DNA from: a bacterium
GTDB taxonomy: Bacteria; Bacteroidota; Ignavibacteria; Ignavibacteriales; Ignavibacteriaceae
DNA length: 64,000 bases
Direction: 5' to 3'
NCBI GenBank assembly: GCA_016716565.1
Contig: JADJWC010000002.1
Location: 109,858-173,857, forward strand
Positions 1,729 through 34,899 of the stretch are shown piece by piece. The position numbers and the translations under genes were made by a program. Each line of letters opens with the position of its first letter. Positions within the stretch are counted from its first letter, which is position 1. Under the pieces are notes generated by a model. The model saw only the letters and a list, made by a program, of their open reading frames with translations. It ran no database searches and was not told where the DNA came from.

Positions 1729-1915
1729 TTTTCTACAGACGTGATAATTGACGTTGAGAAACAGACTAATACTATTTTAAATAGTTAAAGTTCCCGTCAG
1801 CAATAAGTAGAAAAATTTACCCTCCGTTGGAATTCTAAAGTCGGGAACTTTCTTCACATCATTTCAGTGAAAAAGCCTGTTAAATAAACTTCATCAACAC
1901 ATTCGGAGAACTGAA

Positions 1916-3040
1916 ATGAAACAATCAATTATTTTTCTGGCTAGTTTTCTTACTTTCCTGATCATTTTAGGAGACTCAACTTACTCCAGTCAAAAGCCAA
2001 CTACGAACACAGTTCAACTTGCTATCCTGCTCGACACAAGCAACAGTATGGATGGCTTAATTGACCAGGCTAAAACCCAATTGTGGAAAATTGTCAATGA
2101 AATGGCGCGCTCAAAGCGCGAAAGTATAGCCATTAGTTTGTATGTCGCATTGTATGAATATGGTAATGATGGACTTTCACCGACAGAAGGATTTGTCAGA
2201 CTGATAACTCCACTGACGAACGATCTTGATAAAATCTCTGAGGAATTGTTCAAGCTTAAAACAAATGGCGGAAGCGAATATTGCGGAACTGTAATATCAG
2301 AAGCAATAAAAGATCTTAAATGGACAAAAAGTTCAGATGACTACAAAGTTATTTTCATTGCAGGTAACGAACCTTTCAACCAGGGAGAAAAGGATTACAA
2401 AGAAGCATGCAAGTCTGCAATCAGCAAAGGAATCATTGTTAACACAATTTATTGCGGCAGTTATGATGAAGGATTGAATTCCTTCTGGAAAGATGGCGCC
2501 GATCTCGCTGATGGGAAATATATCAATATCGATAGTGATCAGCAGATTGTTCACATTGAAACTCCTTTCGATGATGAACTCGTTCAGCTTGGTCAAAAAA
2601 TAAATGAGACTTATATCGCATTTGGTTATGAAGGAAACGAATTAAAACTGAGACAAAAAGAACAGGACGAGAATGCAACTAACCTTGCACCATCAGTGAT
2701 GGTGGAAAGGTCGGTGACAAAAGGCAGCGGACAGTACAATAATTCAACCTGGGATTTGGTAGATGCTAAAAAAGATGGCTCACTTGATTTAGCTAAAATC
2801 CCGAAAGATCAATTACCAAAAGAAATGCAGAATATGACTTTAGATGAAAAGAAAAAGTATGTTGACAAAAAAGAAAAGAGCGTGAAAAAAATTCAAACTG
2901 AAATAAATAAGCTGGATCAGCAACGAAGGGATTACATAGCAAAAAAGGTTGCTGAAAATAAGCAAGAAAATACTCTTGATGCTGCAATGCTTAATATCAT
3001 TCGTGACCAGGCTTCAAAGAAAAATTATAAGTTCGAATAA
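1916..3040 (+). CDS. secreted von Willebrand factor A (vWA) domain protein with Lys-rich coiled-coil C-terminus
   Basis: Signal peptide. MIDAS-like motif LLDTSNSM. C-terminal KK/E-rich segment. Confidence 0.65.
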   Translation: MKQSIIFLASFLTFLIILGDSTYSSQKPTTNTVQLAILLDTSNSMDGLIDQAKTQLWKIVNEMARSKRESIAISLYVALYEYGNDGLSPTEGFVRLITPLTNDLDKISEELFKLKTNGGSEYCGTVISEAIKDLKWTKSSDDYKVIFIAGNEPFNQGEKDYKEACKSAISKGIIVNTIYCGSYDEGLNSFWKDGADLADGKYINIDSDQQIVHIETPFDDELVQLGQKINETYIAFGYEGNELKLRQKEQDENATNLAPSVMVERSVTKGSGQYNNSTWDLVDAKKDGSLDLAKIPKDQLPKEMQNMTLDEKKKYVDKKEKSVKKIQTEINKLDQQRRDYIAKKVAENKQENTLDAAMLNIIRDQASKKNYKFE

Positions 3041-3083
3041 AAGGACACGGCTGTTACGGACGATTCCGTGACAGCATTTCGTA

Positions 3084-3152
3084 TGTCATTCCCGCGAAAG
3101 CGGGAATCCACTTATTATAAAATAGATTCCGCATCAAGTGCGGAATGACATT
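3084..3152. repeat. small palindromic intergenic element (TGTCATTCC...GGAATGACA) with two internal hairpins
   Basis: gtcattcccgcgaaagcgggaatcc ... attccgcatcaagtgcggaatgacattc. The termini TGTCAT/ATGACA are shared with the elements at 5384 and 6003. Confidence 0.4.
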
Positions 3153-3172
3153 CAAAGAAATTTGAGACTAAA

Positions 3173-5377
3173 ATGAAAGTACAAAAATATTTTTACGTTA
3201 CGAGTTTTCTAATCCTTTTAATCAGTAACTCACTCTTCGCAGATGGCTTAATCATCATTCCTCGGCCTGAGCCTTTGCCTACGCCTTATCCTTTGGAAGT
3301 TCTCTACCACCATGTTGATGTTAAAATAAACGGGAATGTAGCTGAAACTTATATCGACCAGGAATTCCACAATCCATCTGATGTAATGCTCGAAGGGTAC
3401 TACATTTTTCCGATTCCAAAAAATGCTGTAATTAAAGATTTCAGTATGGAAATAAACGGCAAAATGGTTTCAGCTGAACTACTCGATGCAAATAAAGCAC
3501 GACAAATCTATGAAGACATAGTCAGGCAAATAAAAGATCCTGCACTTCTCGAATACTCTGGACAAGGAATTTTTAAAGTAAGGATTTTTCCGATAGAACC
3601 GAGAAGCAATAAAAAAGTCAGCATTAGTTACCGGGAAGTTTTAGATTCCGATAATGATATTTATGAATACATCTATCCGCTAAACACAGAAAAATTTTCA
3701 GCAAAACCAGTGAGGAATGTTTCAGTAAAAGTCGATTTGAAAACGAATAACAAAATAAAAACCATCTATTCCCCTACTCACCCCATTGATGTTGTTCATA
3801 AAGACGCCAAACATGCAATCGTTTCATTCGAAGAAGAAAATACAAAACCGGATATCGATTTTAAATTTTATTTCAGCACGAACAATGATGAGATTGGAAT
3901 TTCTCAACTTACTTATAAATCAACTGATGAAGACGGCTACTTTTTCCTGACAGCTTCACCATCATTTAATATTGATGAGACTAAAATAGATGCAAAAGAT
4001 ATAACATTTGTTCTGGATGTGTCAGGAAGCATGGTCGGTGACAAAATGAAGCAGGCAAAACAAGCTCTTCTTTATTGTGTAAATAATTTAAATAAAGGTG
4101 ATGGTTTTAATATTATCAGATTTTCAACTGAAGCATATTCTCTATTTGGTAAGATCGAAACAGCAAGTGAATCCAATATCAAAAAAGCAGAAAAGTTTAT
4201 TGAAGAATTGAATACAGTCGGAGGAACGAATATCGAAGAAGCTCTTGGTCTTGCTTTAAAAGAAAAACCAGCAAATAACCGAACTCACCTGATAGTTTTT
4301 ATCACGGACGGCAAGCCGACTATTGGCGAAACAAATGATGATATGCTGATAAAGAAACTAGCTGACTCAAATATCAAAAACACTCGCATCTTTACATTTG
4401 GAATCGGGAATGATCTTAACACTCACCTGCTTGATAAAATTACTGAAAAAACAAAAGCCTATCGAACTTATATTTCAGAAGATGAAGACATTGAGATAAA
4501 AATTTCTAGCTTCTATGATAAAGTACAATCGCCTGTCCTCACAAATCTTTCTCTGTCATTCAGCGGAAACGTAAAAATGTTTCAGACATATCCGAAGGAT
4601 TTGCCTGATTTGTTCAAAGGTTCAAGCATACTTGTATTTGGGCGATACTCTGGTGATGGAGATTCAAAAATAACTTTGACAGGCTCGATAAAGGGTGAAA
4701 GGAGATCTTTCATATTAAACACTAATTTTTCTGATGATAATGACGAGTATGATTTCATCCCTCCTTTGTGGGCTTCAAGGAGAATTGGTTATCTGCTTGA
4801 TCAAATTCGACTTAATGGAGAAAACAAAGAATTAGTTGATGAAATAACTCACCTTGCAAGAGAGCACGGTATTGTTACTCCTTACACAAGTTATTTGATA
4901 ATGGAAGATGAGGAAATCAGGATCAGAAGAAATGAATTAACTAATCATTTCCAGACACTTCCTCCTGCTCCTGAGTTAAGAAGAAATACTTCAGAAGACT
5001 TTGATGCAATGAAAATTGAATCCGGTGCATACAGCATCAGAGCCAGTGAAGAAGTCCAGGAATTAAACAAGGCAAGTAATTACGCTGAGACAAAACAAGG
5101 ATCCGGAAGATTGAAGTACAAAGATGACTCTGGTTATGATAGAAACTTAGTCCAACAGGTAAGAAACATCCAGGGAAGAGCCATTTATCAAAGTGGAAAG
5201 TTTTGGGTTGATTCAGAATTACAAAATCAAAAAGCTAAAAATCAGAAACGAATTCAATTCAATTCAACTGAATACTTCAAGCTGCTGAAAGACAAGCCTG
5301 CGACTTCTCAATTCCTCGCACTTGGACAAAATGTTAGGTTTTATTATGACAATACTTTTTATGAGATATATGAGTGA
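3173..5377 (+). CDS. VIT domain + vWA domain protein (inter-alpha-trypsin-inhibitor-like / BatB-like)
   Basis: Signal peptide. N-terminal VIT-like region. vWA MIDAS motif FVLDVSGSM. Length 734 aa. Confidence 0.7.
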   Translation: MKVQKYFYVTSFLILLISNSLFADGLIIIPRPEPLPTPYPLEVLYHHVDVKINGNVAETYIDQEFHNPSDVMLEGYYIFPIPKNAVIKDFSMEINGKMVSAELLDANKARQIYEDIVRQIKDPALLEYSGQGIFKVRIFPIEPRSNKKVSISYREVLDSDNDIYEYIYPLNTEKFSAKPVRNVSVKVDLKTNNKIKTIYSPTHPIDVVHKDAKHAIVSFEEENTKPDIDFKFYFSTNNDEIGISQLTYKSTDEDGYFFLTASPSFNIDETKIDAKDITFVLDVSGSMVGDKMKQAKQALLYCVNNLNKGDGFNIIRFSTEAYSLFGKIETASESNIKKAEKFIEELNTVGGTNIEEALGLALKEKPANNRTHLIVFITDGKPTIGETNDDMLIKKLADSNIKNTRIFTFGIGNDLNTHLLDKITEKTKAYRTYISEDEDIEIKISSFYDKVQSPVLTNLSLSFSGNVKMFQTYPKDLPDLFKGSSILVFGRYSGDGDSKITLTGSIKGERRSFILNTNFSDDNDEYDFIPPLWASRRIGYLLDQIRLNGENKELVDEITHLAREHGIVTPYTSYLIMEDEEIRIRRNELTNHFQTLPPAPELRRNTSEDFDAMKIESGAYSIRASEEVQELNKASNYAETKQGSGRLKYKDDSGYDRNLVQQVRNIQGRAIYQSGKFWVDSELQNQKAKNQKRIQFNSTEYFKLLKDKPATSQFLALGQNVRFYYDNTFYEIYE

Positions 5378-5383
5378 ATACAC

Positions 5384-5458
5384 CTGTCATCACGAACGAA
5401 GCGAAGTTATCTAAAAGAGATTGCTTCTCCTGACTAAAGTCAGGATCGCAATGACATA
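5384..5458. repeat. TGTCAT...ATGACA palindromic repeat element, copy 1
   Basis: tgtcatcacgaacgaagcgaagttatct...agagattgcttc...cgcaatgaca. The same arms occur at 6003-6071. Confidence 0.5.
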
Positions 5459-5511
5459 GTAAGAATCACTCTCCTCTTTTCATTATATTTACCAAAAAAA
5501 ATTATATAATC

Positions 5512-5991
5512 ATGCCTGACATATCTTCCATCGTTCAAATAATACAATTAATGCTTGCACCGGGAATCATGATTTCTGCCTGCGGTTTGCTTCTTCTAGG
5601 AATGAATAACAAATACTCCCTGGTAGTAAATAGAATTCGTACTCTCAATGAAGAGAGACGAAGAGCCCTGCACAAAATGGGTGAAAAGGAATTTACTTTA
5701 CAGGAGAATGTAAGGTTTGAAAGTATCACAAAGCAACTTGAGAGACTTACATACAGAGTTGGACTTGTTCGAAATGCTGTACTGTCCTACACAATTGCAG
5801 TTGCTCTGTTTGTACTTACTTCACTTCTTATCGGAGTTGGATATCTTTTTGATATGACAAGGCTGAACAGCTTTATTACAGTTTTATTTCTATTAGGAAT
5901 GACATCCGTTTTAGCTGGAGTTCTCTTCGCTGCTTACGAAACATACAAAGGTTACGAAATCGTAAAGTACGAAGTTGAGAGTGATGAATGA
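5512..5991 (+). CDS. small integral membrane protein (possibly DUF2721 family)
   Basis: Two or three TM helices. The motif ISACGLLLLGMNNKYSLVVNRIRTL was recalled from memory and is uncertain. Confidence 0.4.
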   Translation: MPDISSIVQIIQLMLAPGIMISACGLLLLGMNNKYSLVVNRIRTLNEERRRALHKMGEKEFTLQENVRFESITKQLERLTYRVGLVRNAVLSYTIAVALFVLTSLLIGVGYLFDMTRLNSFITVLFLLGMTSVLAGVLFAAYETYKGYEIVKYEVESDE

Positions 5992-6002
5992 CTTTTCAAT
6001 GT

Positions 6003-6071
6003 CATCACGAGCGAAGCGAAGTGATCTCAAGCTTAAAGAGAGATTGCTTCACTTCGTTCGCAATGACAAAA
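6003..6071. repeat. TGTCAT...ATGACA palindromic repeat element, copy 2 (imperfect ~70-bp inverted repeat)
   Basis: tgtcatcacgagcgaagcgaagtgatctc / gagagattgcttcacttcgttcgcaatgaca. It overlaps a 73-aa ORF (5975-6196) that is spurious. Confidence 0.5.
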
Positions 6072-6081
6072 AAATGCTAAC

Positions 6082-9000
6082 TCACTTTTTCGATTCATCC
6101 GGAGCTGGTGGTACAACGATCTTCTTCCTCGGATTGTTTTTCAACTCTTCCAGTAAGACTTCCACCGCTTTTTCAAGTGAAGGATCTCTTCCCTGAACAA
6201 CCAGGTCAGCACGGTCATCGATTTCTATATCAGGATAAACACCTTCATTTTCAATAGCCCAGTTGCCATTAGTATCTAAAAATCTAAAAACAGGAATATT
6301 AATGTTGCCGCCATCCATCAAATTAGGATTTCCGGAAATTCCGATAAGTCCTCCCCAGGTTCTGGTACCGATTATTTTTCCCAATCCTTCTTTTCTGAAA
6401 TAATACGGAAATGCATCACCGCCGGAACTTGAATAACCATTTATGAGGCAAGCTTTTGGTCCGTCATGAACAAATCCCGGAACAGGAATTGGTTCAGTCC
6501 CGCGTCGTGTCCAATAGTTTAAAGTCTTTCTTGAAACTAATTCAATCATTCTATCCGGCACGAATCCTCCGCCGTTGTAACGGTCGTCTATAATTAAAGC
6601 TTCTTTGTTTGTCTGAGGATAAAAATATTTGAAGAGTTCTCTGTTCCCTTCTGTTGCGGTGTTTGGAATGTGAATGTATCCAATTTTTCCGCCTGATAAT
6701 TCATCAACCATTTTCATGCGTGAATTTACCCAATCAAGATAAAACAGGTTTTGTTCGCTCTTGACCGGTTTTACTTTTTCTTCTCTTGCACCTTCTTTCG
6801 ATGGTTTAGAATTAACAAGAAGTGTTACAACTTTATCTGCTTTGTTTTCAAGATATTTGTACGGATTTATGTCAGCAGACAACTCGTGACCATCGATAGC
6901 AATTATAAAATCTCCTTCTTTTACACTAACTCCATACTCTGTTAACGGTGATCGAAAATCTGAATGCCAGTTTTCACCTTTGAATATTTTTGTGATCTTA
7001 TAGAAACCTGATGGATCAGCTTCAAGTTCGCAGCCAAGTAATCCACCATCTATTCTTTTAACTCTTTCAAAATCTCCCCAATCAACATAAGTGTGCCCCG
7101 CACTCAACTCACCAACCAGTTCGCCAAAAATGTAATCAAGATCCATTCTGTGAGAAAGATATGGAACAAGCTGTCCATATTTCTCCCGCATTTTGTCCCA
7201 ATCATTACCATGCATTTTTTCATCATAGAACCAGTCACGCAATAAACGCCAACCGTCAACATATATCTGTTTCCATTCTTCTTTTGGGAAAATTTTTATT
7301 TCCAGATTACTAAGATCTATTCTGCCATCCGTATTCTTCTGGTTTTCTTTAACGTCAACAATTCCATATTCACCAGCTTTGGCATACAATAATTTTTTAC
7401 TATTGGATGAAACAACATAGTTACCAATATCTTCAAGCACTGTTACTTCTTTTTCATCTTCCTGGTTAAAGAATTTTAATTTTGAACCTGAGTCATCGCG
7501 ATAGATATAGAGAACTCCTTTTTCTGCCTGATGAAGCGAACCATAATTTCCTGATTTTCCGGGAAGGACTGCAATTCGATTTTCAAAATTTTCAGGATCG
7601 ATTTTTACAACTACTTTTCCGGTATCTTTTTTATTATTCTGTTCACCATTTGTTTTTTCATCATCACTTTTTGGCTGGAATAATGCCGGGACATCATTAT
7701 TCAGAGCAGCAGAATAAACTCGTGTCGGATTCGTATAAACATAATTGAATTCCCAGTTGCTGAATTTCAGATTAAAATCACGGTTTGAGAAGAAATACAG
7801 ATAATTTCCATCTCTGCTGAAAACAGGATTGAATTCATTTGTCAGATCGCTTGTAAGCTGCATAGTTTTTTTCTGGTCAATTGAATATACCCATATCGAA
7901 CTCATACGTGATTCACTTCCCTTTGTGTATGTCAGCCACTTACTGTCCGGTGACCATTGATAGTCTCTGATGTCATTATAATTGCTTTGATCAACTTCAG
8001 TAGTGCTTCCTGTATTTACATCGACATACCACAACTTCTGATTCTTATCTGAATATGCAAGCTTTTTGCTGTCAGGTGACCAAACAGGAGCAAATCGCCA
8101 GATAGTTCCGTCCTTTGTAATTTGTTTTTCTTCACCTTTGCCATCACTTGCTTTCATAAAAATTTCGTACTCGCCCTTACGGTCAGAAAGATATGCGATC
8201 CATTTTCCATCAGGAGACCATACAGGATCAATTTCTCTTATACCGGGAGTTTGCGTGATGTTTACTATCTCACCATTCTCTGCAGGAACAGTAAATACAT
8301 CTCCTCTTGCTTCAAGTAAGGCTCTTTTTCCGGTTGGAGAAATCTCAAACCAGTTTACCTGACCCTTTAAATTTTTTATATAAGGAACAGTTCCCGGAAA
8401 ATCCCCAAAAACCTTTATTTGGACTTGTTCATTTTTATTTGTTGATGGATCATATTTGTAAATATATCCCCCGTTTTCATAAACAATTTTATCATCGCCT
8501 GCACTTGGCCATAGAACATCGTAATTATCAAAATCGCTGACAGCAGAAGTTTGTTTTGAAGAAAGATCGTAAGAATAAAGATTAAGAGTACCAGTTCTGT
8601 CAGATGTAAAATAAATTTTTTCTCCAACCCACATCGGCTGATTATCAGTTCCAAGCCAGTCGGTGATTTTTTCTGTGGTATTATTTTTTAAGTCGTAAAT
8701 CCAAACATCCTGTGCACGACCGCCGCGGTATCTTTTCCAAGTTCGCCATTCTCTTTCAATCGGAGTGTAAACCATTTTTGTTCCATCAGGAGATAACATT
8801 CCTCCTCCGCCTTCAGGAATTTGTAATGGAGTTTCAAATCCACCATCAACCGGAACGAGAAAATATTTTCCCATTCTTTCACCCCAGGGAAGTCGGTTCC
8901 CACGAAAAAGAACATTCTTTCCATCCGGTGTCCAGTCGAGAACCTGGTAATCAAATCCACCGCGCGGCGGCATAACTCCAACATCATTGTAGTAAGTTAA

Positions 9001-27851: not shown

Positions 27852-29108
27852 CTATCCTTTAACAACACCGAGTGGTCTTAGTTTAACGATAGGTTTTATA
27901 AGATCTAATTCAGATTGAATTACCTCATCAATGTTTTTATAGGCAAGAGGTGACTCACCAAGATCAAACAATTCCCCACCATTTATTTTCTTTCCAAACT
28001 TTTTGAGTTTACCCCATCGATCATATACAACGTCACCCATTGCTTTATCGCATTCTTTTGCAGTAAGATTTCTGCAAGCATCCATTCTTCCCATTTTTCT
28101 GCCGGCACCGTGAGAACAGGATTGAAAAGATTCTTCATTACCTAATCCTTCAACAATGTAAGAAGAAGTCCCCATCGAACCGGGAATTATTCCCTTCTCA
28201 CCTTTCTTAGCAGATGTTGCACCTTTCCGATGAATCCAAACGGATTTTTCAAAATGATTTTCCAATGCTGCGTAATTATGATGGATATTTGTTTCTTCAA
28301 GAAAATTTACATCACCAAGATTTATTAGAATGGCTTGTTTAAATTCTTCCATCATTAATCTTCTGTTTTCTCTTGCATATTCCAGAGCAAAATTCATATC
28401 TCTAATGTAATCATTTCCTTCATCCATCTCTGTTCTAAAAAATGCAAGATCTTTATCCGGTAGTTCATCATTGTATTTATCATTTATTTCCTGAGCAAGT
28501 TTATGATAATATGAGGCGATCCTATTACCAATATTTCTTGAACCTGAATGTAGCATCAGCCAGAGGTATCCATCCTGTGAAATTTGCATTTCAATAAAAT
28601 GATTTCCGCCGCCTAAAGTTCCAAGATTTTTGAATGCTAATGTCCAGGTAGCTTTATCCAACCATGCTGGCAATTTTGGATTCTTGAAGTCATCAACTTC
28701 TTCACCAATACCAAGAGTTTTTAAGTAAGCAGGAAACCCATCCCATGAGTGTGGATGTTTGTGTGCATTTCCTTCACCGACCGGTACATTTGCTTTTATA
28801 TCATTAAGGATTTTTCTAATTAAAGATTTATCAGTTAAATCATTTGCAGGAAAATTGGTTTTAACTGCACCCATTCCACATCCAATATCAACACCGACTG
28901 CATTCGGTATGATTGCATTTTCGGTTGCAATAACTCCACCAATCGGCATTCCATATCCGACATGAGCATCGGGCATTAACGCAATATGATTTAAAGTAAC
29001 AGGATGATTAGCAAGATTTTCAGCCTGTTCAAGTGCACCTAGTTCAAGTGTTTCGCACCAGGATTTTATCGGTATTTTAAGATTTTCATCTTCTTTGATC
29101 CATTTCAT
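27852..29108 (-). CDS. rtcB: RNA-splicing ligase RtcB (3'-phosphate/5'-OH RNA ligase)
   Basis: GGGNHFIEMQ, HSGSRNIGN, SCSHGAGRKMGR motifs. Start taken at MKWIKEDE (ATG 29106-29108, RBS AGAGGA). The ORF-track extension to 29192 overlaps tRNA-Pro and is rejected. Confidence 0.9.
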   Translation of the reverse strand: MKWIKEDENLKIPIKSWCETLELGALEQAENLANHPVTLNHIALMPDAHVGYGMPIGGVIATENAIIPNAVGVDIGCGMGAVKTNFPANDLTDKSLIRKILNDIKANVPVGEGNAHKHPHSWDGFPAYLKTLGIGEEVDDFKNPKLPAWLDKATWTLAFKNLGTLGGGNHFIEMQISQDGYLWLMLHSGSRNIGNRIASYYHKLAQEINDKYNDELPDKDLAFFRTEMDEGNDYIRDMNFALEYARENRRLMMEEFKQAILINLGDVNFLEETNIHHNYAALENHFEKSVWIHRKGATSAKKGEKGIIPGSMGTSSYIVEGLGNEESFQSCSHGAGRKMGRMDACRNLTAKECDKAMGDVVYDRWGKLKKFGKKINGGELFDLGESPLAYKNIDEVIQSELDLIKPIVKLRPLGVVKG

Positions 29109-29123
29109 AGTTTTCCTCTTTAA

Positions 29124-29198
29124 TACTTTATTGTCTGTGTGGTAGGACTCGAACCTACATTTTCCCGGCTCCAAACCGGCACGGATAACCAATTCCCG
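29124..29198 (-). tRNA. tRNA-Pro (anticodon UGG)
   Basis: Hand-folded cloverleaf. Acceptor CTGTGTG/CACACAG. T-arm GTAGG-TTCGAGT-CCTAC. Anticodon loop TTTGGAG. Confidence 0.7.
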
Positions 29199-29253
29199 TC
29201 ACACACAGATATAATTTAGTAAACGTATTATCTATTAAAAATTCCAATTATAA

Positions 29254-29324
29254 AATTTTATTGCGTGACGTGTGGGATTTGAACCCCGACTCCTGATAGA
29301 CAGTCAGGTGTGTTTCCGTTACAC
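29254..29324 (-). tRNA. tRNA-Asp (anticodon GUC)
   Basis: Anticodon arm CCTGA-CTGTCTA-TCAGG. T-loop TTCAAAT. Acceptor/T-stem register is ambiguous by hand. Confidence 0.6.
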
Positions 29325-29354
29325 TACACATCACTTTTATAGATATTCTATTAA

Positions 29355-29428
29355 TATTTAATTGTCCCACCGATAGGATTCGAACCTACATCATTTCGGT
29401 TAAAAGCCGAAAGCATTGCTCCTTTATG
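29355..29428 (-). tRNA. tRNA-Lys (anticodon UUU)
   Basis: D-arm GCAT-AAAGGAGCA-ATGC. Anticodon arm TTCGG-CTTTTAA-CCGAA. T-loop TTCGAAT. Confidence 0.8.
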
Positions 29429-29442
29429 CTACGGTGGAATAA

Positions 29443-29515
29443 TGTCTTTAAGTACTCTCTGCAGGAATCGAACCCACATCTAACTGCTTAGAAGACAGCT
29501 GCATTATCCTTTATG
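29443..29515 (-). tRNA. tRNA-Arg (anticodon UCU)
   Basis: Acceptor GCTCTCT/AGAGAGT. Anticodon loop CTTCTAA. T-loop TTCGATT. Confidence 0.7.
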
Positions 29516-29520
29516 CTAAG

Positions 29521-29592
29521 AGAGCGTTGGAATCGTTATAAGGATTTGAACCTTAATCCCCCGACTCGTAAGCGGGTATCTTTTCCATTAGA
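29521..29592 (-). tRNA. tRNA-Arg (anticodon ACG)
   Basis: Acceptor GTCGTTA/TAACGAT. Anticodon loop TTACGAG. T-arm TAAGG-TTCAAAT-CCTTA. Confidence 0.7.
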
Positions 29593-29595
29593 CGA

Positions 29596-29668
29596 TAACG
29601 ACTTGAGCCAACGCAAGGATTCGAACCCTGTTCTCCGGTTTACAAAACCGGTGCATCAACCTGTAATG
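29596..29668 (-). tRNA. tRNA-Thr (anticodon UGU), aberrant acceptor stem
   Basis: Anticodon arm CCGGT-TTTGTAA-ACCGG is perfect. Acceptor 5' GCCTTCG vs 3' CGTTGGC gives two adjacent U:U mismatches. The 5' end sits inside the perfect palindrome AATGCCTTCGAAGCATT. Confidence 0.55.
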
Positions 29669-29673
29669 CTTCG

Positions 29674-29757
29674 AAGGCATTCGTACAAGTAGAAGGATTC
29701 GAACCTTCAAGCCCTCAAGGGCAGTAGTTTCTAAGACTACCGTGTATACCAATTCCA
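29674..29757 (-). tRNA. tRNA-Leu (anticodon UAG), class II with long variable arm
   Basis: Anticodon arm GTAGT-CTTAGAA-ACTAC. Variable hairpin GCCC-TTGA-GGGC. T-arm GAAGG-TTCGAAT-CCTTC. Confidence 0.8.
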
Positions 29758-29763
29758 CCATAC

Positions 29764-29835
29764 TTGCATTCAGGGTGTGAGCTAAGATTTGAACTTAGTC
29801 CTATTGGGTCACAGCCAATTATGCTGCCATTACAC
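29764..29835 (-). tRNA. tRNA-His (anticodon GUG) with G-1; acceptor has two internal mismatches
   Basis: Anticodon arm ATTGG-CTGTGAC-CCAAT. Extra 5' G pairs with C73. Acceptor 5' GTGTTTG vs 3' CTCACAC gives U:C and U:U mismatches. Confidence 0.6.
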
Positions 29836-29908
29836 CACAAACACCATAATAATGTCGTTAAAGGAAATGAATACCTATCTTAAAAATTTTTAAATCAATC
29901 TATCTAAG

Positions 29909-29982
29909 AACGATAAAGTCCTACGGGTAGGATTCGCACCCACTATCTCCCGGATATAAGCCGGGTGCATTTACTAATTATG
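29909..29982 (-). tRNA. tRNA-Ile (anticodon UAU), atypical: no GG in D-loop, T-loop TGCGAAT
   Basis: Acceptor CCTACGG/CCGTAGG is perfect. Anticodon arm CCCGG-CTTATAT-CCGGG. D-loop AATTAGTAA. Confidence 0.6.
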
Positions 29983-29983
29983 C

Positions 29984-30055
29984 TTCCGTAGGGTAGCGGG
30001 TATTGGATTCGAACCAATGACCTTCAGCTTATGAAACTGATGAGCTGCCGCTGCT
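29984..30055 (-). tRNA. tRNA-Met or tRNA-Ile2 (anticodon CAU; elongator type)
   Basis: Acceptor GGCGGGT/ACCCGCT. D-arm GAGC-AGCGGCA-GCTC. Anticodon loop TTCATAA. Lacks the initiator features (C1:A72 mismatch, GGG/CCC anticodon stem). Confidence 0.75.
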
Positions 30056-30065
30056 CAAACCCGCC

Positions 30066-30140
30066 AAATGATTAGTGGAAAGGGTAGGAATCGAACCCAC
30101 GCAGTCAACGGGCTTCAACCGCTTGCTCTACCTGCTGAGC
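30066..30140 (-). tRNA. tRNA-Phe (anticodon GAA)
   Basis: Acceptor GGAAAGG/CCTTTCC. D-arm GCTC-AGCAGGTAGA-GC. Anticodon loop TTGAAGC. Confidence 0.85.
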
Positions 30141-30147
30141 TACCTTT

Positions 30148-30219
30148 CCATATTTTGCAGTCCCGGCAGGATTTGAACCTACATCTTTGGGTTCAAAGCC
30201 CAATGTGCTTACCATTGCA
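30148..30219 (-). tRNA. tRNA-Gln (anticodon UUG)
   Basis: Anticodon arm TTGGG-CTTTGAA-CCCAA. D-arm GTGC-AATGGTAA-GCAC. T-loop TTCAAAT. Confidence 0.8.
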
Positions 30220-30223
30220 CCAC

Positions 30224-30299
30224 AGAACTATTGAGTCGGTAAAGGGAGTTGAACCCTCACTTCAAGTTTGGAAGACTTACGTGCTGGTTCCGTTAAACA
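30224..30299 (-). tRNA. tRNA-Gly (anticodon UCC), enlarged D-loop
   Basis: Acceptor GTCGGTA/TACCGAC is perfect. Anticodon loop CTTCCAA. D-region is 21 nt. Confidence 0.7.
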
Positions 30300-30322
30300 C
30301 TATACCGACGGATTGAAAAATT

Positions 30323-30393
30323 GATTCTCTGCTGAACAGGCAGGACTCGAACCTGCATCATTCCGGTTAACAGCCGGGCGCTTCACCATTGAG
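30323..30393 (-). tRNA. tRNA-Asn (anticodon GUU)
   Basis: Acceptor TGAACAG/CTGTTCA is perfect. Anticodon loop CTGTTAA. T-arm GCAGG-TTCGAGT-CCTGC. Confidence 0.75.
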
Positions 30394-30414
30394 CTACTGT
30401 TCAATTAATTTTAT

Positions 30415-31446
30415 TCAAGCTTTATCACCAATTCTTATCTGATATTGCTTCTCATTAATTTTATCGACGCTGATATTTATTGCTAAAAATTTTTTCACAA
30501 CCTCAATGATTGTCATTGTATGTAAAGTTGGTTCAGTCGTAATAAAACTTCCGCCACCAGCAAGTGCCATCGGGATTATCAATTGATCAGCCAGATATTT
30601 ATACACCGGAACATCAGCGTCCACATATTCAGAATATTCTCTTAATACATCATCGATTACATTTTTCAACTTATAATTTTTTCTTCCGAATCCGGTAAAG
30701 GTTTCTGTTGAATTATCATTTTCATCGATGAGAATGATAACATTTCCCGGTCCTGGCGAATCAACCATTTTTGCTATGCAGTTTACTTCATTCCAACCCA
30801 GCTTTTTTTGAATGATCTTCATCTCACTTTTACCAATGCTTTCCGGAATTAGTGAGGAGTATGCAATTGCTTTCCTGTTCAGCTGGGATCCTTTTTCAAT
30901 GATTTCGATCTGGTTCAGTTCTTTAACAGGTTTAACATTTACATCAATCTTTCCACCTCCTACCGGAAAGAATCCGAATTTCCCGATATTAATATTTACT
31001 ACAGGTCCCATTTTTCTCAACTGGTTAAAAAAAGAATAATTCAGAAAATCTACTGGCGGAGAAAATTCATTATGGGTTCCACCGCCTAAACTAATGTTCG
31101 ATTCACCATTCGCAAGCATAAGAACGGGAACAACAGTTTGAAGCACAAGAGTTGTACTTCCTGCAGTTCCAATATCAAAATTGTAATTACCGGATTTAAT
31201 TTTTGCGGGGTCAAAGTATAATTTCAAAGAACTAATTTCAGCACCTCGAACTCGAGCATCACAAATTTCTGCGGCAGCTTTTACTGCAGTGAGATGTTGC
31301 CTCATTAAGCCGGGCTTTTTTCTTCCGGCTCTTATATTCTTAATAACTACCGGAAATTGAGTATACATTGATAAGGAAAGAGACGACCTGAGAATCTGGC
31401 CGCCTCCTTCTCCGAATGAACCATCTATTTCAATGAGCTTTTTCAT
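30415..31446 (-). CDS. rtcA: RNA 3'-terminal phosphate cyclase RtcA
   Basis: N-terminal IDGSFGEGGGQILRSSLSLS...IRAGRKKPGLMRQHL and C-terminal LADQLIIPMALAGGG match the RtcA family end to end. Confidence 0.88.
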   Translation of the reverse strand: MKKLIEIDGSFGEGGGQILRSSLSLSMYTQFPVVIKNIRAGRKKPGLMRQHLTAVKAAAEICDARVRGAEISSLKLYFDPAKIKSGNYNFDIGTAGSTTLVLQTVVPVLMLANGESNISLGGGTHNEFSPPVDFLNYSFFNQLRKMGPVVNINIGKFGFFPVGGGKIDVNVKPVKELNQIEIIEKGSQLNRKAIAYSSLIPESIGKSEMKIIQKKLGWNEVNCIAKMVDSPGPGNVIILIDENDNSTETFTGFGRKNYKLKNVIDDVLREYSEYVDADVPVYKYLADQLIIPMALAGGGSFITTEPTLHTMTIIEVVKKFLAINISVDKINEKQYQIRIGDKA

Positions 31447-31448
31447 AC

Positions 31449-32552
31449 TTAAAGTAAGTTAACAATTTTGTCAGTTAACCCTTTATCACCAAGCATAATT
31501 TTCAGGTCAGTTCTTGCAGCGATCTTTTCAAGAACTTCCAGCTCTTTGAGCTTCATAAGTACTGGATTGCTCTCGAGCATTTTAGCAGTATTAGCCTGGT
31601 TTCTCATTGCGGCAGTCTCCTCTCTTCTGGAGATGAGATTTGCCTCTGCTTCTTTTTTAGCAAGGATAACTTTGTTCAGTATCTCTTTCATATCACCAGG
31701 AAGAATTATATCCCTGATTCCATGACTCAGAACCTCAATACCGTACTTAATCATTCTTGCTGCTAGTCTTTCCTCAAGCTCTTTCGCAACAGAGTCCTTT
31801 TCAGCAAGTATCGCTTCAAGTTCTCTTGTTCCGATTACTTCTCTAAGAACAAGCTGAGCTTCTCTGTAGAGTGCCTGAGTAGAATCTTCAACCATTGATA
31901 CAGATTTGTATGCATCTACAATTCTGTAGTTAACAAGGGTATTTAGTCTTAAAGAAACTTTATCAGCAGTCATAATTTCTTGTCCGGAAATATCGCTTGA
32001 CTTTACTCTCAGATCTACCTGATAAAGTTTTACTTTGGAAATACCTATCCAGAATGCATATCTGCCTGGTTTGAGATTCCCTATGAAGTTTCCATTCTCG
32101 AAGTACAGACCAATATGGTTGTCTTCTACAATGAATTCATTTAGTACAGCTTTCGATGCACCTGCATCCATAATTATATCCAGTTTTTCATGGACAAATT
32201 GTGGGCTTTTAACATCGATCACTTCCACTAAAACTTCACGACCAACTTTCCAAAGAGCATAAATACCAGAGTAAAGAATTCTGTCAAATCTTCCGTCAAT
32301 CCAAATGACTGCACGTTGATTATCTTTTAGATCAATTACTTCTAATTCATCTTTATTAATTTTATCGGACTTGATTATTGATTCGAGTTCCTTATGGACA
32401 AGCCACGCCTCTTTTACAGAAACAATATCAAGTGCTTCATCTTTAAATGGATCTGTAAACCAGTATGAACCTTCGTTGAGTATTTCAACAAATTGTTCAT
32501 CCACAAAGTACAGTCCTCTTTCGTGTGCAAGGATTCTTCTTTTACCAAACAT
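31449..32552 (-). CDS. cytoplasmic SPFH/band-7 (slipin-like) domain protein with an unrecognised ~170-aa N-terminal domain
   Basis: C-terminal half matches stomatin/HflC-like SPFH (IRDIILPGDMKE, AEANLISRREETAAMRNQANTAKML). No TM segment. Stop is 3 nt before the rtcA start. Confidence 0.6.
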   Translation of the reverse strand: MFGKRRILAHERGLYFVDEQFVEILNEGSYWFTDPFKDEALDIVSVKEAWLVHKELESIIKSDKINKDELEVIDLKDNQRAVIWIDGRFDRILYSGIYALWKVGREVLVEVIDVKSPQFVHEKLDIIMDAGASKAVLNEFIVEDNHIGLYFENGNFIGNLKPGRYAFWIGISKVKLYQVDLRVKSSDISGQEIMTADKVSLRLNTLVNYRIVDAYKSVSMVEDSTQALYREAQLVLREVIGTRELEAILAEKDSVAKELEERLAARMIKYGIEVLSHGIRDIILPGDMKEILNKVILAKKEAEANLISRREETAAMRNQANTAKMLESNPVLMKLKELEVLEKIAARTDLKIMLGDKGLTDKIVNLL

Positions 32553-32639
32553 GACTTATCTCCTTTTTATTTTTGTTAATCAGTTAATTAAAAGGGCTAA
32601 TTGAAGAAAGACAACTAACTCAACACATTTCTTCTGCGG

Positions 32640-32813
32640 AGCGTTACTTAAGCAATTCAAAGTTGTATCGTATCTGCAAACTCAAATTCAACAACACAAC
32701 TTTTAAAGAGCGGTATCCGCACGCTGCAAGGCAGAATACTAATGCTGCAAACAGAATTATGCCTCCCCAATAATTTCTGTTTGCTGCTAAATCGCTCATC
32801 CTTCCTCAAAAAG
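32640..32813 (-). CDS. small ORF (57 aa) with a hydrophobic core, between the tRNA-like gene and the SPFH gene
   Basis: MSDLAANRNYWGGIILFAALVFCLAACGYRSLKVVLLNLSLQIRYNFELLK*. Preceded by GAGGAAGG. Below the ORF-track size cutoff. Speculative. Confidence 0.2.
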
Positions 32814-32838
32814 CCAAAGAACAGTTCACCTTTACAGG

Positions 32839-32914
32839 GTGCATGAGCGGGAATCGAACCCGCGACCTATAGATCATTAGTCTATTGCTCTTCCAATTGA
32901 GCTATCATTGTGCA
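32839..32914 (-). ncRNA. aberrant tRNA-like RNA (tRNA mimic or pseudogene). Canonical D- and T-arms, acceptor stem with a 3-nt bulge, anticodon loop CUAAUGA (formally AAU with G37).
   Basis: D-arm TAGCTCAATTGGAAGAGCA. T-arm GCGGG-TTCGATT-CCCGC. 3' TCATGCA-C. 5' TGCA[CAA]TGA. Sits ~100 nt downstream of a TGGCAC -24 element. Confidence 0.5.
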
Positions 32915-33020
32915 GTTTCAACATCGTCTTTAGAACCCGCAACCGGAACATTAAATGATAATTGATTACTCAAACCAGATAATGCCGACCGGTCAAATAT
33001 CAATTCTGCATAAATTATAA

Positions 33021-33037
33021 GCCAATGAGTGTGCCAG
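33021..33037 (-). promoter_or_regulatory. candidate sigma54 (-24/-12) promoter for the minus-strand rtc unit; imperfect -12 element
   Basis: Minus-strand TGGCAC-ACTCA-TTGGC (consensus TGGCAC-N5-TTGCA). Divergent from rtcR, as at the E. coli rtcBA-rtcR locus. A GACCGGTC palindrome lies 25 nt downstream. Confidence 0.35.
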
Positions 33038-33163
33038 CACTTCGGCTGAAAACTTAACTGGTTTATTTTTAATGACTTATGGGAATTTTTGACCTAACTG
33101 CTTGACGACATTATTAATAATCACTATAATTAACTATAATATTTTAGATTTAAAGATAAAACT

Positions 33164-33346
33164 ATGAAGAACATACTTTTCAGTTTGTTGGGAACAACAT
33201 TAGATAAATCTTTCAAGCAAGATAGATGGGAAAGATGGCGGCCATCCGTTGCAATTTGTCAACACGAGGATTTAATAATCGATAAATACCATTTAATTTA
33301 TCCGTCAAACCATCTTCGCCTTGCAGAGAATTATAGAGGATATTAA
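33164..33346 (+). CDS. rtcR: RtcR N-terminal segment (start of CARF domain), frame-shifted relative to the rest of rtcR
   Basis: MKNILFSLLGTTLDKSFKQDRWERWRPSVAICQHEDLIIDKYHLIY matches the E. coli RtcR N-terminus (GTVLD...QRWSKWRPTLCLCQQESLVIDRLELLH). Confidence 0.8.
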   Translation: MKNILFSLLGTTLDKSFKQDRWERWRPSVAICQHEDLIIDKYHLIYPSNHLRLAENYRGY

Positions 33347-34751
33347 AATTGTATCTCCTGAAACAGAGGTAATTCCACATGAAATTGATTTTAAAGATCC
33401 ATGGGATTTTGAAGAAGTGTACACTGGTCTTCTTGATTTCCTCGAGCACTTTGATTTTCATAAAGTGGAGGATCGATATCTTTTCAATATTACTACCGGT
33501 ACCCACGTTGCTCAAATATGTATTTACCTTCTAACTGAATCACGAAGATTTCCAGGTAATATTATACAAACATCTCCTGCTCACGGAAATGCTGCAGGAA
33601 CTTATTCTATCATAGATTTAGATTTATCGAAGTATGATAAAATAGCAGCACGATTTGCGAAAGAAATAAAAGATGATATCGCATTTCTAAAATCCGGGAT
33701 TGAAACAAAAAATAAAAAGTTTAATGAACTTATTGATAGAATAGAATTAGTCGCCTTAAGAACTAAGGATCCAATTTTGCTGACCGGTCCGACTGGAGCT
33801 GGAAAATCCTTCCTTGCAAGAAGAATTTATGAACTTAAAAAGTTGAAAGCTTCCGTCAAAGGTCAATTTGTTGAAATAGACTGCGGAACAATTCGCGGCG
33901 ATGCAGCTATGTCCGCTTTGTTTGGGCACAAGAAAGGTGCATTCACTGGTGCAATCAGCGACAGACCTGGTTTGTTAAAAACTGCTGATAAAGGAATTGT
34001 TTTTCTCGATGAGATTGGCGAACTCGGCCTAGACGAGCAAGTAATGCTTTTAAGAGCGATAGAAGATAAAAAGTTTTTTAGTGTGGGTGCAGACAAAGAA
34101 TCAACAAGTGATTTTCAATTGATCTGTGGAACGAACAGAAATCTTCAGCAAAGAGTAAAAGATGGATTGTTTAGAGAAGATCTACTTGCAAGAATAAACC
34201 TTTGGACATTCAATTTGCCGGGATTAAAAGATCGTCCTGAAGATATCGAACCAAATCTCGATTATGAATTAAACCGGTATGCAGATAAAACAGGTGATGT
34301 AGTGCGATTCAACAAAGAAGCACGAGATGCATTCCTGAATTTTGCAGTTTCAAAAGATGCAAAATGGCTAGCTAACTTCAGAGATTTGAATGGTGCAATC
34401 ATCAGGTTATGCACACTTGCACTTGGAGGAAGGATTACACTGGACATTCTTGAAGAAGAAATTAAAAGATTAAAATCATTATGGAAGACAGAAAAAATTG
34501 AATCTGAGGATAGGTTGATAAATAATTTTAGGCATATAATAGACATAACAAGAATCGATTTGTTTGAACAAATACAGATTGAGGGTGTTTTAAAAGTCTG
34601 TCGAGAATCAAAAAGTCTATCTGATGCAGGAAGAAAACTGTTTGCCATTTCACGCCTATCAAAGGCATCTTCAAATGATAGTGATAGATTAAAAAAATTT
34701 TTAGTCAAGTACGGATTGACCTGGGAAATGACCCAAAACAATTATATCTGA
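33321..34751 (+). CDS. rtcR: RtcR, CARF-domain sigma54-dependent transcriptional activator of the rtc operon (the frame continues upstream to ~33286 as FIRQTIFALQRIIEDI...)
   Basis: SPETEV...DFKDPWDFEEVY...TGTHVAQICIYLL (CARF). Walker A GPTGAGKS. GAFTGA. ESKSLSDAGRKLF...LTWE C-terminus. Colinear with E. coli RtcR throughout. Confidence 0.88.
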   Translation: MQRIIEDIKIVSPETEVIPHEIDFKDPWDFEEVYTGLLDFLEHFDFHKVEDRYLFNITTGTHVAQICIYLLTESRRFPGNIIQTSPAHGNAAGTYSIIDLDLSKYDKIAARFAKEIKDDIAFLKSGIETKNKKFNELIDRIELVALRTKDPILLTGPTGAGKSFLARRIYELKKLKASVKGQFVEIDCGTIRGDAAMSALFGHKKGAFTGAISDRPGLLKTADKGIVFLDEIGELGLDEQVMLLRAIEDKKFFSVGADKESTSDFQLICGTNRNLQQRVKDGLFREDLLARINLWTFNLPGLKDRPEDIEPNLDYELNRYADKTGDVVRFNKEARDAFLNFAVSKDAKWLANFRDLNGAIIRLCTLALGGRITLDILEEEIKRLKSLWKTEKIESEDRLINNFRHIIDITRIDLFEQIQIEGVLKVCRESKSLSDAGRKLFAISRLSKASSNDSDRLKKFLVKYGLTWEMTQNNYI

Positions 34752-34785: not shown

Positions 34786-34826
34786 TTAAAAAAACCCTCA
34801 GAATTTTATCATCTTGAGGGTTTTTG
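34786..34826. terminator. bidirectional rho-independent terminator (A-run, hairpin ccctcag...cttgaggg, T-run)
   Basis: Lies between the rtcR stop and the 3' end of the convergent tRNA-Thr. Confidence 0.55.
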
Positions 34827-34899
34827 AGCTGGTGAACGGATTCGAACCGCCGACCGGCTGATTACAAATCAGCTGCTCTACCAGCTGAGCTACACCAGC
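34827..34899 (-). tRNA. tRNA-Thr (anticodon UGU), canonical
   Basis: Acceptor GCTGGTG/CACCAGC is perfect. D-arm GCTC-AGCTGGTAGA-GC. Anticodon arm GCTGA-TTTGTAA-TCAGC. T-loop TTCGAAT. Confidence 0.85.

Follow-up and report, generated by a model that had tools for sequence, protein, structure and literature searches.

A conserved band 7-associated tRNA mimic at the head of a predicted RtcR-controlled RNA repair operon in an Ignavibacteriaceae genome

Here we describe a tRNA-like element that lies at the head of an RNA repair operon in a 64,000-nucleotide stretch of an Ignavibacteriaceae genome (GenBank assembly GCA_016716565.1, contig JADJWC010000002.1, positions 109,858 to 173,857 of the forward strand), which was analysed as a whole and is hereafter called the window. 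On the minus strand the element is followed by an SPFH (Band-7) gene, rtcA, 14 tRNA genes and rtcB, with rtcR in divergent orientation (Table 1), an order that had been read from the letters in the original prediction and in which Pfam, ARAGORN and Rfam agree. The TGGCAC noted there upstream of the element lies at 33036..33031, 122 nt from the element's first base, within a sigma-54-type motif whose TGGCA and CATTG columns are invariant across five close relatives, and by the usual geometry of sigma-54 promoters transcription would start near 33010. No terminator-like site was predicted between this motif and the SPFH start in the window. The comparative analysis set out below indicates that the element is a real, conserved, non-decoding tRNA mimic and not a decaying pseudogene.

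Read on the minus strand from 32914 to 32839 the element is UGCACAAUGAUAGCUCAAUUGGAAGAGCAAUAGACUAAUGAUCUAUAGGUCGCGGGUUCGAUUCCCGCUCAUGCAC, of which 32908..32843 form the conserved core. Its D and T arms (32902..32887 and 32863..32847) are those of a tRNA, as originally noted, and the Rfam tRNA model (RF00005) matches the minus strand with 56.1 bits (E = 2.1e-9 in the 64-kb window), which exceeds the gathering threshold and covers model positions 4-67 only (32908..32843). The acceptor consists of four contiguous base pairs, AUGA at 32908..32905 with UCAU at 32846..32843, and the anticodon arm AUAGA-CUAAUGA-UCUAU occupies 32885..32869, with its loop at 32880..32874. ARAGORN made no call for the element, though it called 15 other tRNAs in the window. 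A canonical 7-bp acceptor with a free 3′ end was not found: there is no CCA, the 3′ strand runs directly into a conserved hairpin, and extension of the helix requires a non-conserved 3-nt bulge. The bulged pairing that had been proposed as the acceptor, TGCA-CAA-TGA with TCA-TGCA, is present in the element and in its RNAfold minimum free energy structure, but it is not conserved, the inner pairs being broken in six of eight and five of eight close relatives. The minimum free energy is no better than that of shuffled sequence (z = -1.43). Since the outer helix does not exceed its shuffle control in the comparison with those relatives either, and its 3′ strand overlaps the conserved hairpin at 32841..32827, the bulged 7-bp acceptor was rejected as a conserved feature.

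Homologues of the SPFH protein at 79-97% identity gave access to contigs of close relatives, the nearest named one being an Ignavibacteriaceae metagenome-assembled genome (88% identity). These contigs share the rtcR, leader, SPFH and rtcA layout, and each one with upstream sequence holds a partial match to the Rfam tRNA model at the equivalent place, with ARAGORN calling none of them. Over the whole 480-nt leader the mean column identity is 79%, and the promoter motif is invariant. A second, more distant set comprised 80 loci with SPFH proteins of 50-54% identity, of which about 65 were matched by an nhmmer profile of the leader. The matches lie mostly 400-600 nt upstream of the SPFH gene and span the tRNA-like portion together with some 40 nt of sequence preceding it. 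The distant carriers belong to Planctomycetota, Thermoanaerobaculia, Desulfobacterales, Geobacter, Victivallales, Omnitrophota and other groups; to judge from these homologues, the element is conserved in at least five bacterial phyla. A covariance model built from 58 distant copies, with the window and its clade excluded (R1), recognises the window element at full length (model positions 1-160) with 90.6 bits and an E-value of 6e-22, whereas the best true tRNA of the window reaches 54.8 bits over the tRNA core only. Of the 80 loci, 69 have an R1 match to the element ahead of SPFH, which bears out the earlier suggestion of a conserved tRNA mimic at the head of this RtcR-type operon, and six of the 11 loci lacking a match have less than 500 nt of upstream sequence. 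Wherever the spacer could be measured (64 loci), the element lies upstream of SPFH on the same strand, 272-855 nt from the SPFH start. A metagenome scan with a two-block leader pattern yielded only four further loci.

Some loci depart from this picture. Five SPFH loci (L040, L048, L051, L052 and L081 in our numbering) have ample upstream sequence and no family-model match at E <= 1e-12; L051 keeps a tRNA-Cys at the expected place, and the absence of a match could reflect loss, divergence or masking. In L015 (6494-6643), L073 (6234-6700) and L088 (1900-2180) there are two adjacent tRNA or tRNA-like units, or a match to the core of the model only; the element may exist there in a variant or rearranged form.

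The anatomy of the family cloverleaf was derived from 68 distinct copies from several phyla, from which RNAalifold recovers the fold. It is paired in 98.7% of cells and carries 166 double-sided changes, where shuffles average about 27; this level of covariation was not reached in any of 500 shuffles, and slid controls were 25-48% paired. The D stem and the nucleotides of the elbow (U8, A14, the D-loop G and GGUUCGA.UCC) are invariant, each of the five pairs of the anticodon stem has 12-20 double-sided changes, and covariation is also seen at three pairs of the T stem. The original prediction had also offered an inactivated tRNA as an explanation, with which this conservation and covariation do not agree. 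The family acceptor is a 3-bp helix closed by UA in 42 copies, AU in 12, GC in eight and CG in two; contiguous pairing extends to 3 bp in 27 copies, 4 in 14, 5 in 12, 6 in seven and 7 in one. Seven-nucleotide anticodon loops occur in 57 of the 68 copies (U33 in 41 of these, a purine at 37 in 55) and contain 28 different triplets, one of them stop-reading, with GUU (six copies) and GAU (five) the commonest. The other loops have 5, 6 or 8 nt, apart from one of 32 nt in a close relative, which is due to an insertion of about 25 nt. With elbow and stems kept and triplets free to vary, the family has retained the shape of a tRNA and given up decoding.

The same holds for the window copy, where the 4-bp acceptor, the lack of CCA and the triplet diversity among orthologues support the original view that it is not a standard decoder. 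The formal anticodon AAU with G37 can be read in the loop CUAAUGA as claimed, but it is not conserved: the loop differs in almost every relative, so that neither A34 nor G37 carries meaning and AAU is peculiar to this genome. A single substitution separates the window loop from CUGAUGA, its counterpart in relative L003. Some distant copies are called as tRNAs by ARAGORN with odd anticodons (aug, aag, agg, aac, auu, uua), which would explain annotations such as tRNA-Arg4 in Pseudomonas aeruginosa. The loop insertion of about 25 nt lies at ~555-585 in L004 (also at ~13-45 in L005) and in L004 can form a small hairpin of its own (AGAC...GUCU).

Table 1. Features of the rtc locus and its leader (window coordinates).
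Feature	Position	Strand	Basis
rtcB (RNA ligase)	27852..29108	minus	Pfam RtcB, 2.8e-107
tRNA array, 14 genes, between rtcA and rtcB	29133..30403	minus	ARAGORN and Rfam
rtcA (RNA 3′-phosphate cyclase)	30415..31446	minus	Pfam RTC, 5.9e-78
SPFH/Band-7 (slipin) gene	31449..32552	minus	Pfam Band_7, 7e-30
3′ leader domain	32595..32815	minus	RNAalifold on 8 close relatives
3′ hairpin CACC-CUGUAAA-GGUG with anticodon-loop-like 7-nt loop	32827..32841	minus	family consensus loop CUNNNAA
tRNA-like element as originally delimited	32839..32914	minus	outer bases 32914..32909 and 32842..32839 lie outside the conserved cloverleaf
tRNA-like core	32843..32908	minus	Rfam tRNA match, family cloverleaf, model R1
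Family 5′ motif AUGUUCCG-GUUG-CGGGUUCUAAAGACG	32925..32951	minus	includes 3-bp mini-hairpin 32946..32937
5′ leader hairpin UUUGACCGG..CGGCAUUA ... UAAUGUUCCGGUU	32941..32997	minus	RNAfold and RNAalifold, few compensatory changes
Sigma-54-type motif TGGCAC-N5-CATTGG (-24/-12 elements)	33022..33036	minus	putative promoter; columns invariant in 5 close relatives
Strong sigma-70-like promoter facing rtcR	33102-33130	plus	promoter scan, 11/12 matches
rtcR (CARF + sigma-54 AAA+ activator)	33164..34751	plus, divergent	Pfam RtcR matches both pieces

The tRNA-like element seems to form a single domain within a conserved leader RNA of greater length. About 25 nt upstream of the cloverleaf lies a motif whose family form is GUGUUCCG-N4-YGGGUUCUGAC, with G13, T14, C16, C17, G24, G25 and T28 invariant in the 68 copies, and it is this motif that enables the family model to tell the element from true tRNAs; the 5′ leader hairpin is larger in the Ignavibacteria-like clade. 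The hairpin on the 3′ side was found with a 7-nt loop in 60 of 68 copies by an ad hoc scan, its stems varying between lineages and its loop favouring C at position 1 (41 copies), U at 2 (45) and A at 6 and 7 (46 and 41). For the 3′ domain, RNAalifold predicts a closing helix of about 27 bp, GGCUUUUUGAGGAAGGAUGA at 32815..32796 with UUGUCUUUCUUCAAUUAGCC at 32614..32595, and conserved blocks are seen at UGCAGCGUGCGGAUACCGC (32728..32710) and GCUUAAGUAACGCUCCGCAGAA (32653..32632). The blocks UGCAGCGUGCGGAUACCGC and GCU.AAG...CGCUCCGC, together with a purine-rich GAGGRAGG strand, are common to the leaders of the close relatives, of a Planctomycetota-dominated group and of the rtcR-linked distant loci of Desulfobacterota and Geobacter, and the spacer between element and SPFH is not neutral. 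In many distant loci an ad hoc search also found closing-helix strands that are complementary with lineage-specific sequence, for example GGGGGCGAGGCG/CGCCUCGCCCCC, GGGAGAUGAAG/CUUCGUCUUCC and GGAGGCAGA/UCUGUCUUC. The 3′ domain is nevertheless less well supported than the cloverleaf.

No Rfam family matches the leader. The spacer contains no minus-strand open reading frame (ORF) of at least 60 aa in the window, and the lengths of its stop-free stretches vary widely across loci. Two further readings of the leader were discarded. A hammerhead-like interpretation of CUGACGA in the 5′ motif was dropped by eye because the GAAA element after the next stem is missing, and a search for specifier or T-box-like pairing of the anticodon loop within the RNA, with either the downstream leader or the upstream flank, gave no enrichment over shuffled pairings.

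Comparison of locus architectures reveals how the element travels. The arrangement in Desulfobacterales, Geobacter, Victivallales and Omnitrophota has no array and places rtcR in divergent orientation to element, SPFH, rtcA and rtcB. Planctomycetota carry arrays of up to about 40 tRNA genes, mostly ending in tRNA-Cys(GCA), followed by the element and SPFH, and usually have no rtc gene within 7 kb. The window clade has rtcR divergent from element, SPFH, rtcA, 11-22 tRNA genes (as in L001, L004, L011 and L012) and rtcB. The element is physically linked to long tRNA arrays in two lineages. The upstream TGGCAC is conserved in most rtcR-linked loci: the pattern TGGCA[CT]-N5-YTG, applied strictly, occurs 121-169 nt upstream of the D arm in all rtcR-linked copies except L007, L047 and L070, and among the array-type copies without rtcR it occurs in L016 alone. 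Taken together, the architectures and the distribution of the motif indicate that the RNA tracks the SPFH gene more faithfully than it tracks RtcB or RtcR. The Planctomycetota array loci include L018, L023, L026, L033, L034, L075 and L078, at ~400-6400 in locus coordinates.

The window array comprises tRNAs for Asn, Gly, Gln, Phe, Met, Ile-UAU, His, Leu, Thr, Arg-ACG, Arg-UCU, Lys, Asp and Pro, with Rfam scores ranging from 34 to 70 bits; its tRNA-Thr(UGU) is about 60% identical to the housekeeping tRNA-Thr (34826-34899). Its Lys, Arg, Asp, His, Asn, Gln and Met members are of types that we take to be common targets of anticodon nucleases. The account of long tRNA arrays that we examined makes no mention of a link to SPFH/Band-7 genes.

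In the AlphaFold model of the SPFH protein (mean predicted local distance difference test score 82.5), three beta-repeat modules make up the N-terminal part, ahead of an SPFH domain and a long helix of some 60 residues; no hydrophobic anchor was seen in the sequence. The best Foldseek E-values were those of cage-forming SPFH proteins (stomatin, HflK/C, prohibitin, erlin and flotillin), whose alignments were confined to the SPFH domain and helix (~230-260 columns). Alignments were longest with the major vault protein, at 399-467 columns and E-values of 3e-10 to 2e-8. Like the major vault protein, the SPFH partner has a predicted order of beta-sheet repeats, an SPFH-type shoulder and a long helix, and like it, it is paired with a small structured RNA. 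The likeness is one of fold alone, at 11-14% identity and template modelling (TM) scores of about 0.2-0.4, and no membership of the vault family is claimed; the major vault protein has nine repeats, and the SPFH model three. On the strength of the model, the partner is predicted to be of a cage-forming kind with vault-like domain order.

The window element is, by its context and homology, a member of the b7a-tRNA class (for band 7-associated tRNA): it has a Band-7/SPFH neighbour on the same strand, stands in an RtcB repair locus with RtcA, RtcB and RtcR recognised by Pfam, folds as a cloverleaf with canonical D and T arms, and is homologous to elements upstream of SPFH genes in other phyla. 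Such RNAs were predicted beside Band-7 and RtcB genes as the counterpart of YrlA, were proposed to be functionally redundant with it, and at that time lacked experimental validation (Wang et al., 10.1101/312249), so that the comparability to a Y-RNA module suggested in the original prediction has a precedent in the proposal of a Band-7 counterpart of Ro60/YrlA. Beyond that source, the name b7a-tRNA was not found in the literature searched. In P. aeruginosa PAO1 an element between rtcR (PA4581) and the rtc cluster (PA4582-PA4585) is annotated as tRNA-Arg4 (PA4581.1); it has no CCA, an unusual D loop and an atypical anticodon, and was detected by quantitative reverse-transcription PCR at about half the level of canonical tRNAs (PMC13637947). 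Its assignment to the b7a-tRNA class follows from position and description, not from alignment. Like the window element, it is tRNA-like, adjoins a Band-7/SPFH gene and belongs to an RtcB locus, with rtcR on one side and the rtc genes on the other. The class was described as "strongly resembling an authentic tRNA", whereas the window element and most copies have a 3-4 bp acceptor and a free anticodon. The window family differs further in its 5′ motif, its anticodon-loop-like 3′ hairpin and its long conserved leader, and the window copy in that its operon has an array of 14 tRNA genes embedded in it. The prior description may not have covered the larger leader RNA, the linkage to arrays and the vault-like partner.

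With the Ro60/YrlA system the window shares a non-coding RNA with tRNA-like D and T arms, placed inside an RtcR-controlled RtcB operon beside a ring- or cage-forming scaffold protein. It differs in lacking a Ro60 gene, as had been remarked: no TROVE/Ro60 domain was found in the operon or in ten other mid-sized ORFs of the window, the remaining window ORFs being unscanned. A Y-RNA family match was likewise not obtained, only RF00005 being returned at gathering and at permissive thresholds from Rfam, whose content of Y-RNA models is unconfirmed. In the window element the anticodon arm closes as a hairpin and both acceptor strands run on into further RNA, in which respect it presumably differs from YrlA. 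Translational stress in Anabaena induces rtcB together with a long tRNA operon (PMC8421152), and loss of TrcR by deletion derepresses that operon along with rtcB and a slipin gene (PMC10272220). There, too, divergent extra tRNA genes are linked to rtcB and a slipin gene, although the Anabaena genes are dispersed and under the repressor TrcR, whereas the window array sits between rtcA and rtcB inside an RtcR/sigma-54-type operon with the mimic at its head. The Anabaena co-regulation lends independent support to a module for repair and replacement of tRNAs.

We consider it probable, without being certain, that the element is a non-decoding tRNA mimic in the leader of an RtcR-dependent transcript and acts with the SPFH protein in a module for tRNA damage or translational stress; a role as RNA partner or operator of that protein in an RtcB-centred response is the most likely one. 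The mimic keeps the elbow made by the D and T arms and an anticodon-type arm, but has lost acceptor length and anticodon identity. It would be the first structured element transcribed from the RtcR/sigma-54-type promoter, in a leader RNA of about 460 nt co-transcribed with SPFH, rtcA, the 14-tRNA array and rtcB. The RNA may then serve as a bound cofactor of the SPFH protein, as Y RNA does for Ro60, or may instead be a site at which the SPFH protein or the repair enzymes recognise the shape of a tRNA. After tRNA damage or translational stress, RtcA and RtcB would repair broken tRNAs while the array supplied spares.

Several points weigh against this proposal. Binding to the SPFH protein is a prediction, as would be any phenotype, and the comparison to b7a-tRNAs draws on a second-hand summary (10.1101/312249) of Burroughs and Aravind 2016. 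The level of PA4581.1 was unchanged on induction of the Rtc proteins (PMC13637947), which fits poorly with simple co-induction from an RtcR promoter. In the window, rtcR is split by a 2-nt deletion just after 33324, as seen in alignment with L001 and L012, into ORFs at 33164-33346 and 33321-34751; this frameshift (33320-33330) marks a real pseudogene or else an error of assembly, so that in this genome the promoter could be silent, or the sequence misassembled at this point. The strict linkage in cis to the SPFH start through a structured leader, finally, would fit a cis-regulatory role equally well.

That role ranks next after the favoured one, and we regard it as a serious but less probable explanation. 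Here the tRNA-shaped domain and the rest of the leader would act as an operator that governs how the SPFH-rtc mRNA is translated or how stable it is. One of the system's own tRNA-binding proteins (SPFH, RtcB, RtcA or another) would attach to it by mimicry and be titrated off by damaged tRNAs. The E. coli thrS operator is the model for such mimicry of tRNA by a leader. The fixed strand and limited distance to the SPFH start argue for it, as do the conservation of the whole spacer, whose long closing helix stops about 45 nt short of the Shine-Dalgarno sequence, the lack of a predicted terminator, the invariance of shape-defining bases next to a free anticodon, and the retention of the element in array-type loci without rtcR, where post-transcriptional control would be needed. 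On the other hand the predicted fold does not obviously sequester the Shine-Dalgarno sequence, any ligand or protein partner is hypothetical, and the operon-internal Y RNAs of Salmonella are co-transcribed yet act in trans. The operator and cofactor roles are compatible and do not exclude one another. A decoy or sentinel, possible but unsupported, seems to us rather unlikely: the mimic would be cut at the anticodon loop instead of the real tRNAs, or before them, and so soak up a toxin or feed 2′,3′-cyclic-phosphate ends to the CARF domain of RtcR. RtcR has been reported to respond to cleaved or nicked tRNAs (PMC7790460; PMC10159003), and a role as sponges that absorb toxin RNases has been proposed for array tRNAs (PMC8421152). 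Most copies preserve the frame of the 7-nt loop while the triplet differs even between close relatives, which could reflect an arms race, and a second anticodon-loop-like hairpin follows downstream. Relaxed constraint, however, predicts equally free variation of the triplet, the inserted loop of one relative and those of 5, 6 and 8 nt are ill suited to mimicry of a specific target, and Salmonella YrlA, which is analogous, is not cleaved by the relevant nuclease.

Two explanations by way of ordinary tRNA biology fare much worse. As an unusual decoding tRNA, formally tRNA-Ile(AAU), the element could claim complete D, anticodon and T arms and its Rfam score, and some distant copies have acceptors of 5-7 bp and are called by ARAGORN, as the P. 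aeruginosa element is annotated as a tRNA; yet the short acceptor, the missing CCA, the passage of the 3′ side into a conserved hairpin and the lack of an ARAGORN call in the window, together with the variety of triplets (a stop-reading one included) and loop lengths among orthologues, leave this reading very improbable and contradicted by the comparative data. The degenerate acceptor, the non-standard anticodon and the proximity of the tRNA array, 2.4 kb away, would suit a pseudogene decaying from that neighbour. An invariant elbow and covarying stems in 68 copies from several phyla, family-specific flanking motifs and a fixed position relative to SPFH refute this, and we give it scarcely any credence.

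Such elements bear on what the accessory RNAs of bacterial Rtc operons do, the Band-7-associated mimic being the least studied of them. Selection is strongly purifying on the tRNA elbow and absent on decoding, and a tie to SPFH that is tighter than that to RtcB, together with travel alongside arrays of spare tRNAs, points to one module that may sense, repair and replace damaged tRNAs. More speculatively, and with less confidence than we place in the mimic itself, b7a-tRNA could be the 5′ domain of a multi-domain RNA of about 400-600 nt (5′ motif, truncated cloverleaf, anticodon-loop-like hairpin and helix-closed 3′ domain) that extends from the Ignavibacteria-like clade to Planctomycetota and Desulfobacterota, stands always ahead of a soluble vault-like SPFH protein and was repeatedly fused to long tRNA arrays. 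If so, the multi-domain leader and SPFH protein would constitute an undescribed RNA-protein module of the bacterial tRNA-damage response. Cultivable carriers include P. aeruginosa and Trichlorobacter thiogenes ATCC BAA-34 (locus L065). On a practical level, annotation pipelines overlook these elements or record them as tRNAs whose anticodons are arbitrary, and this distorts tRNA inventories.

Two minor points concern the annotation of the window. The mechanically called rtcB ORF (27852-29192) begins at a TTG inside the tRNA-Pro gene (29133-29208); since orthologues in relatives have 418 aa, the start is probably the ATG at 29108. About 27 kb from the operon, at 3173-5377 on the plus strand, the window also encodes a 734-aa protein with VIT (vault protein inter-alpha-trypsin) and VWA domains, which is probably unrelated.

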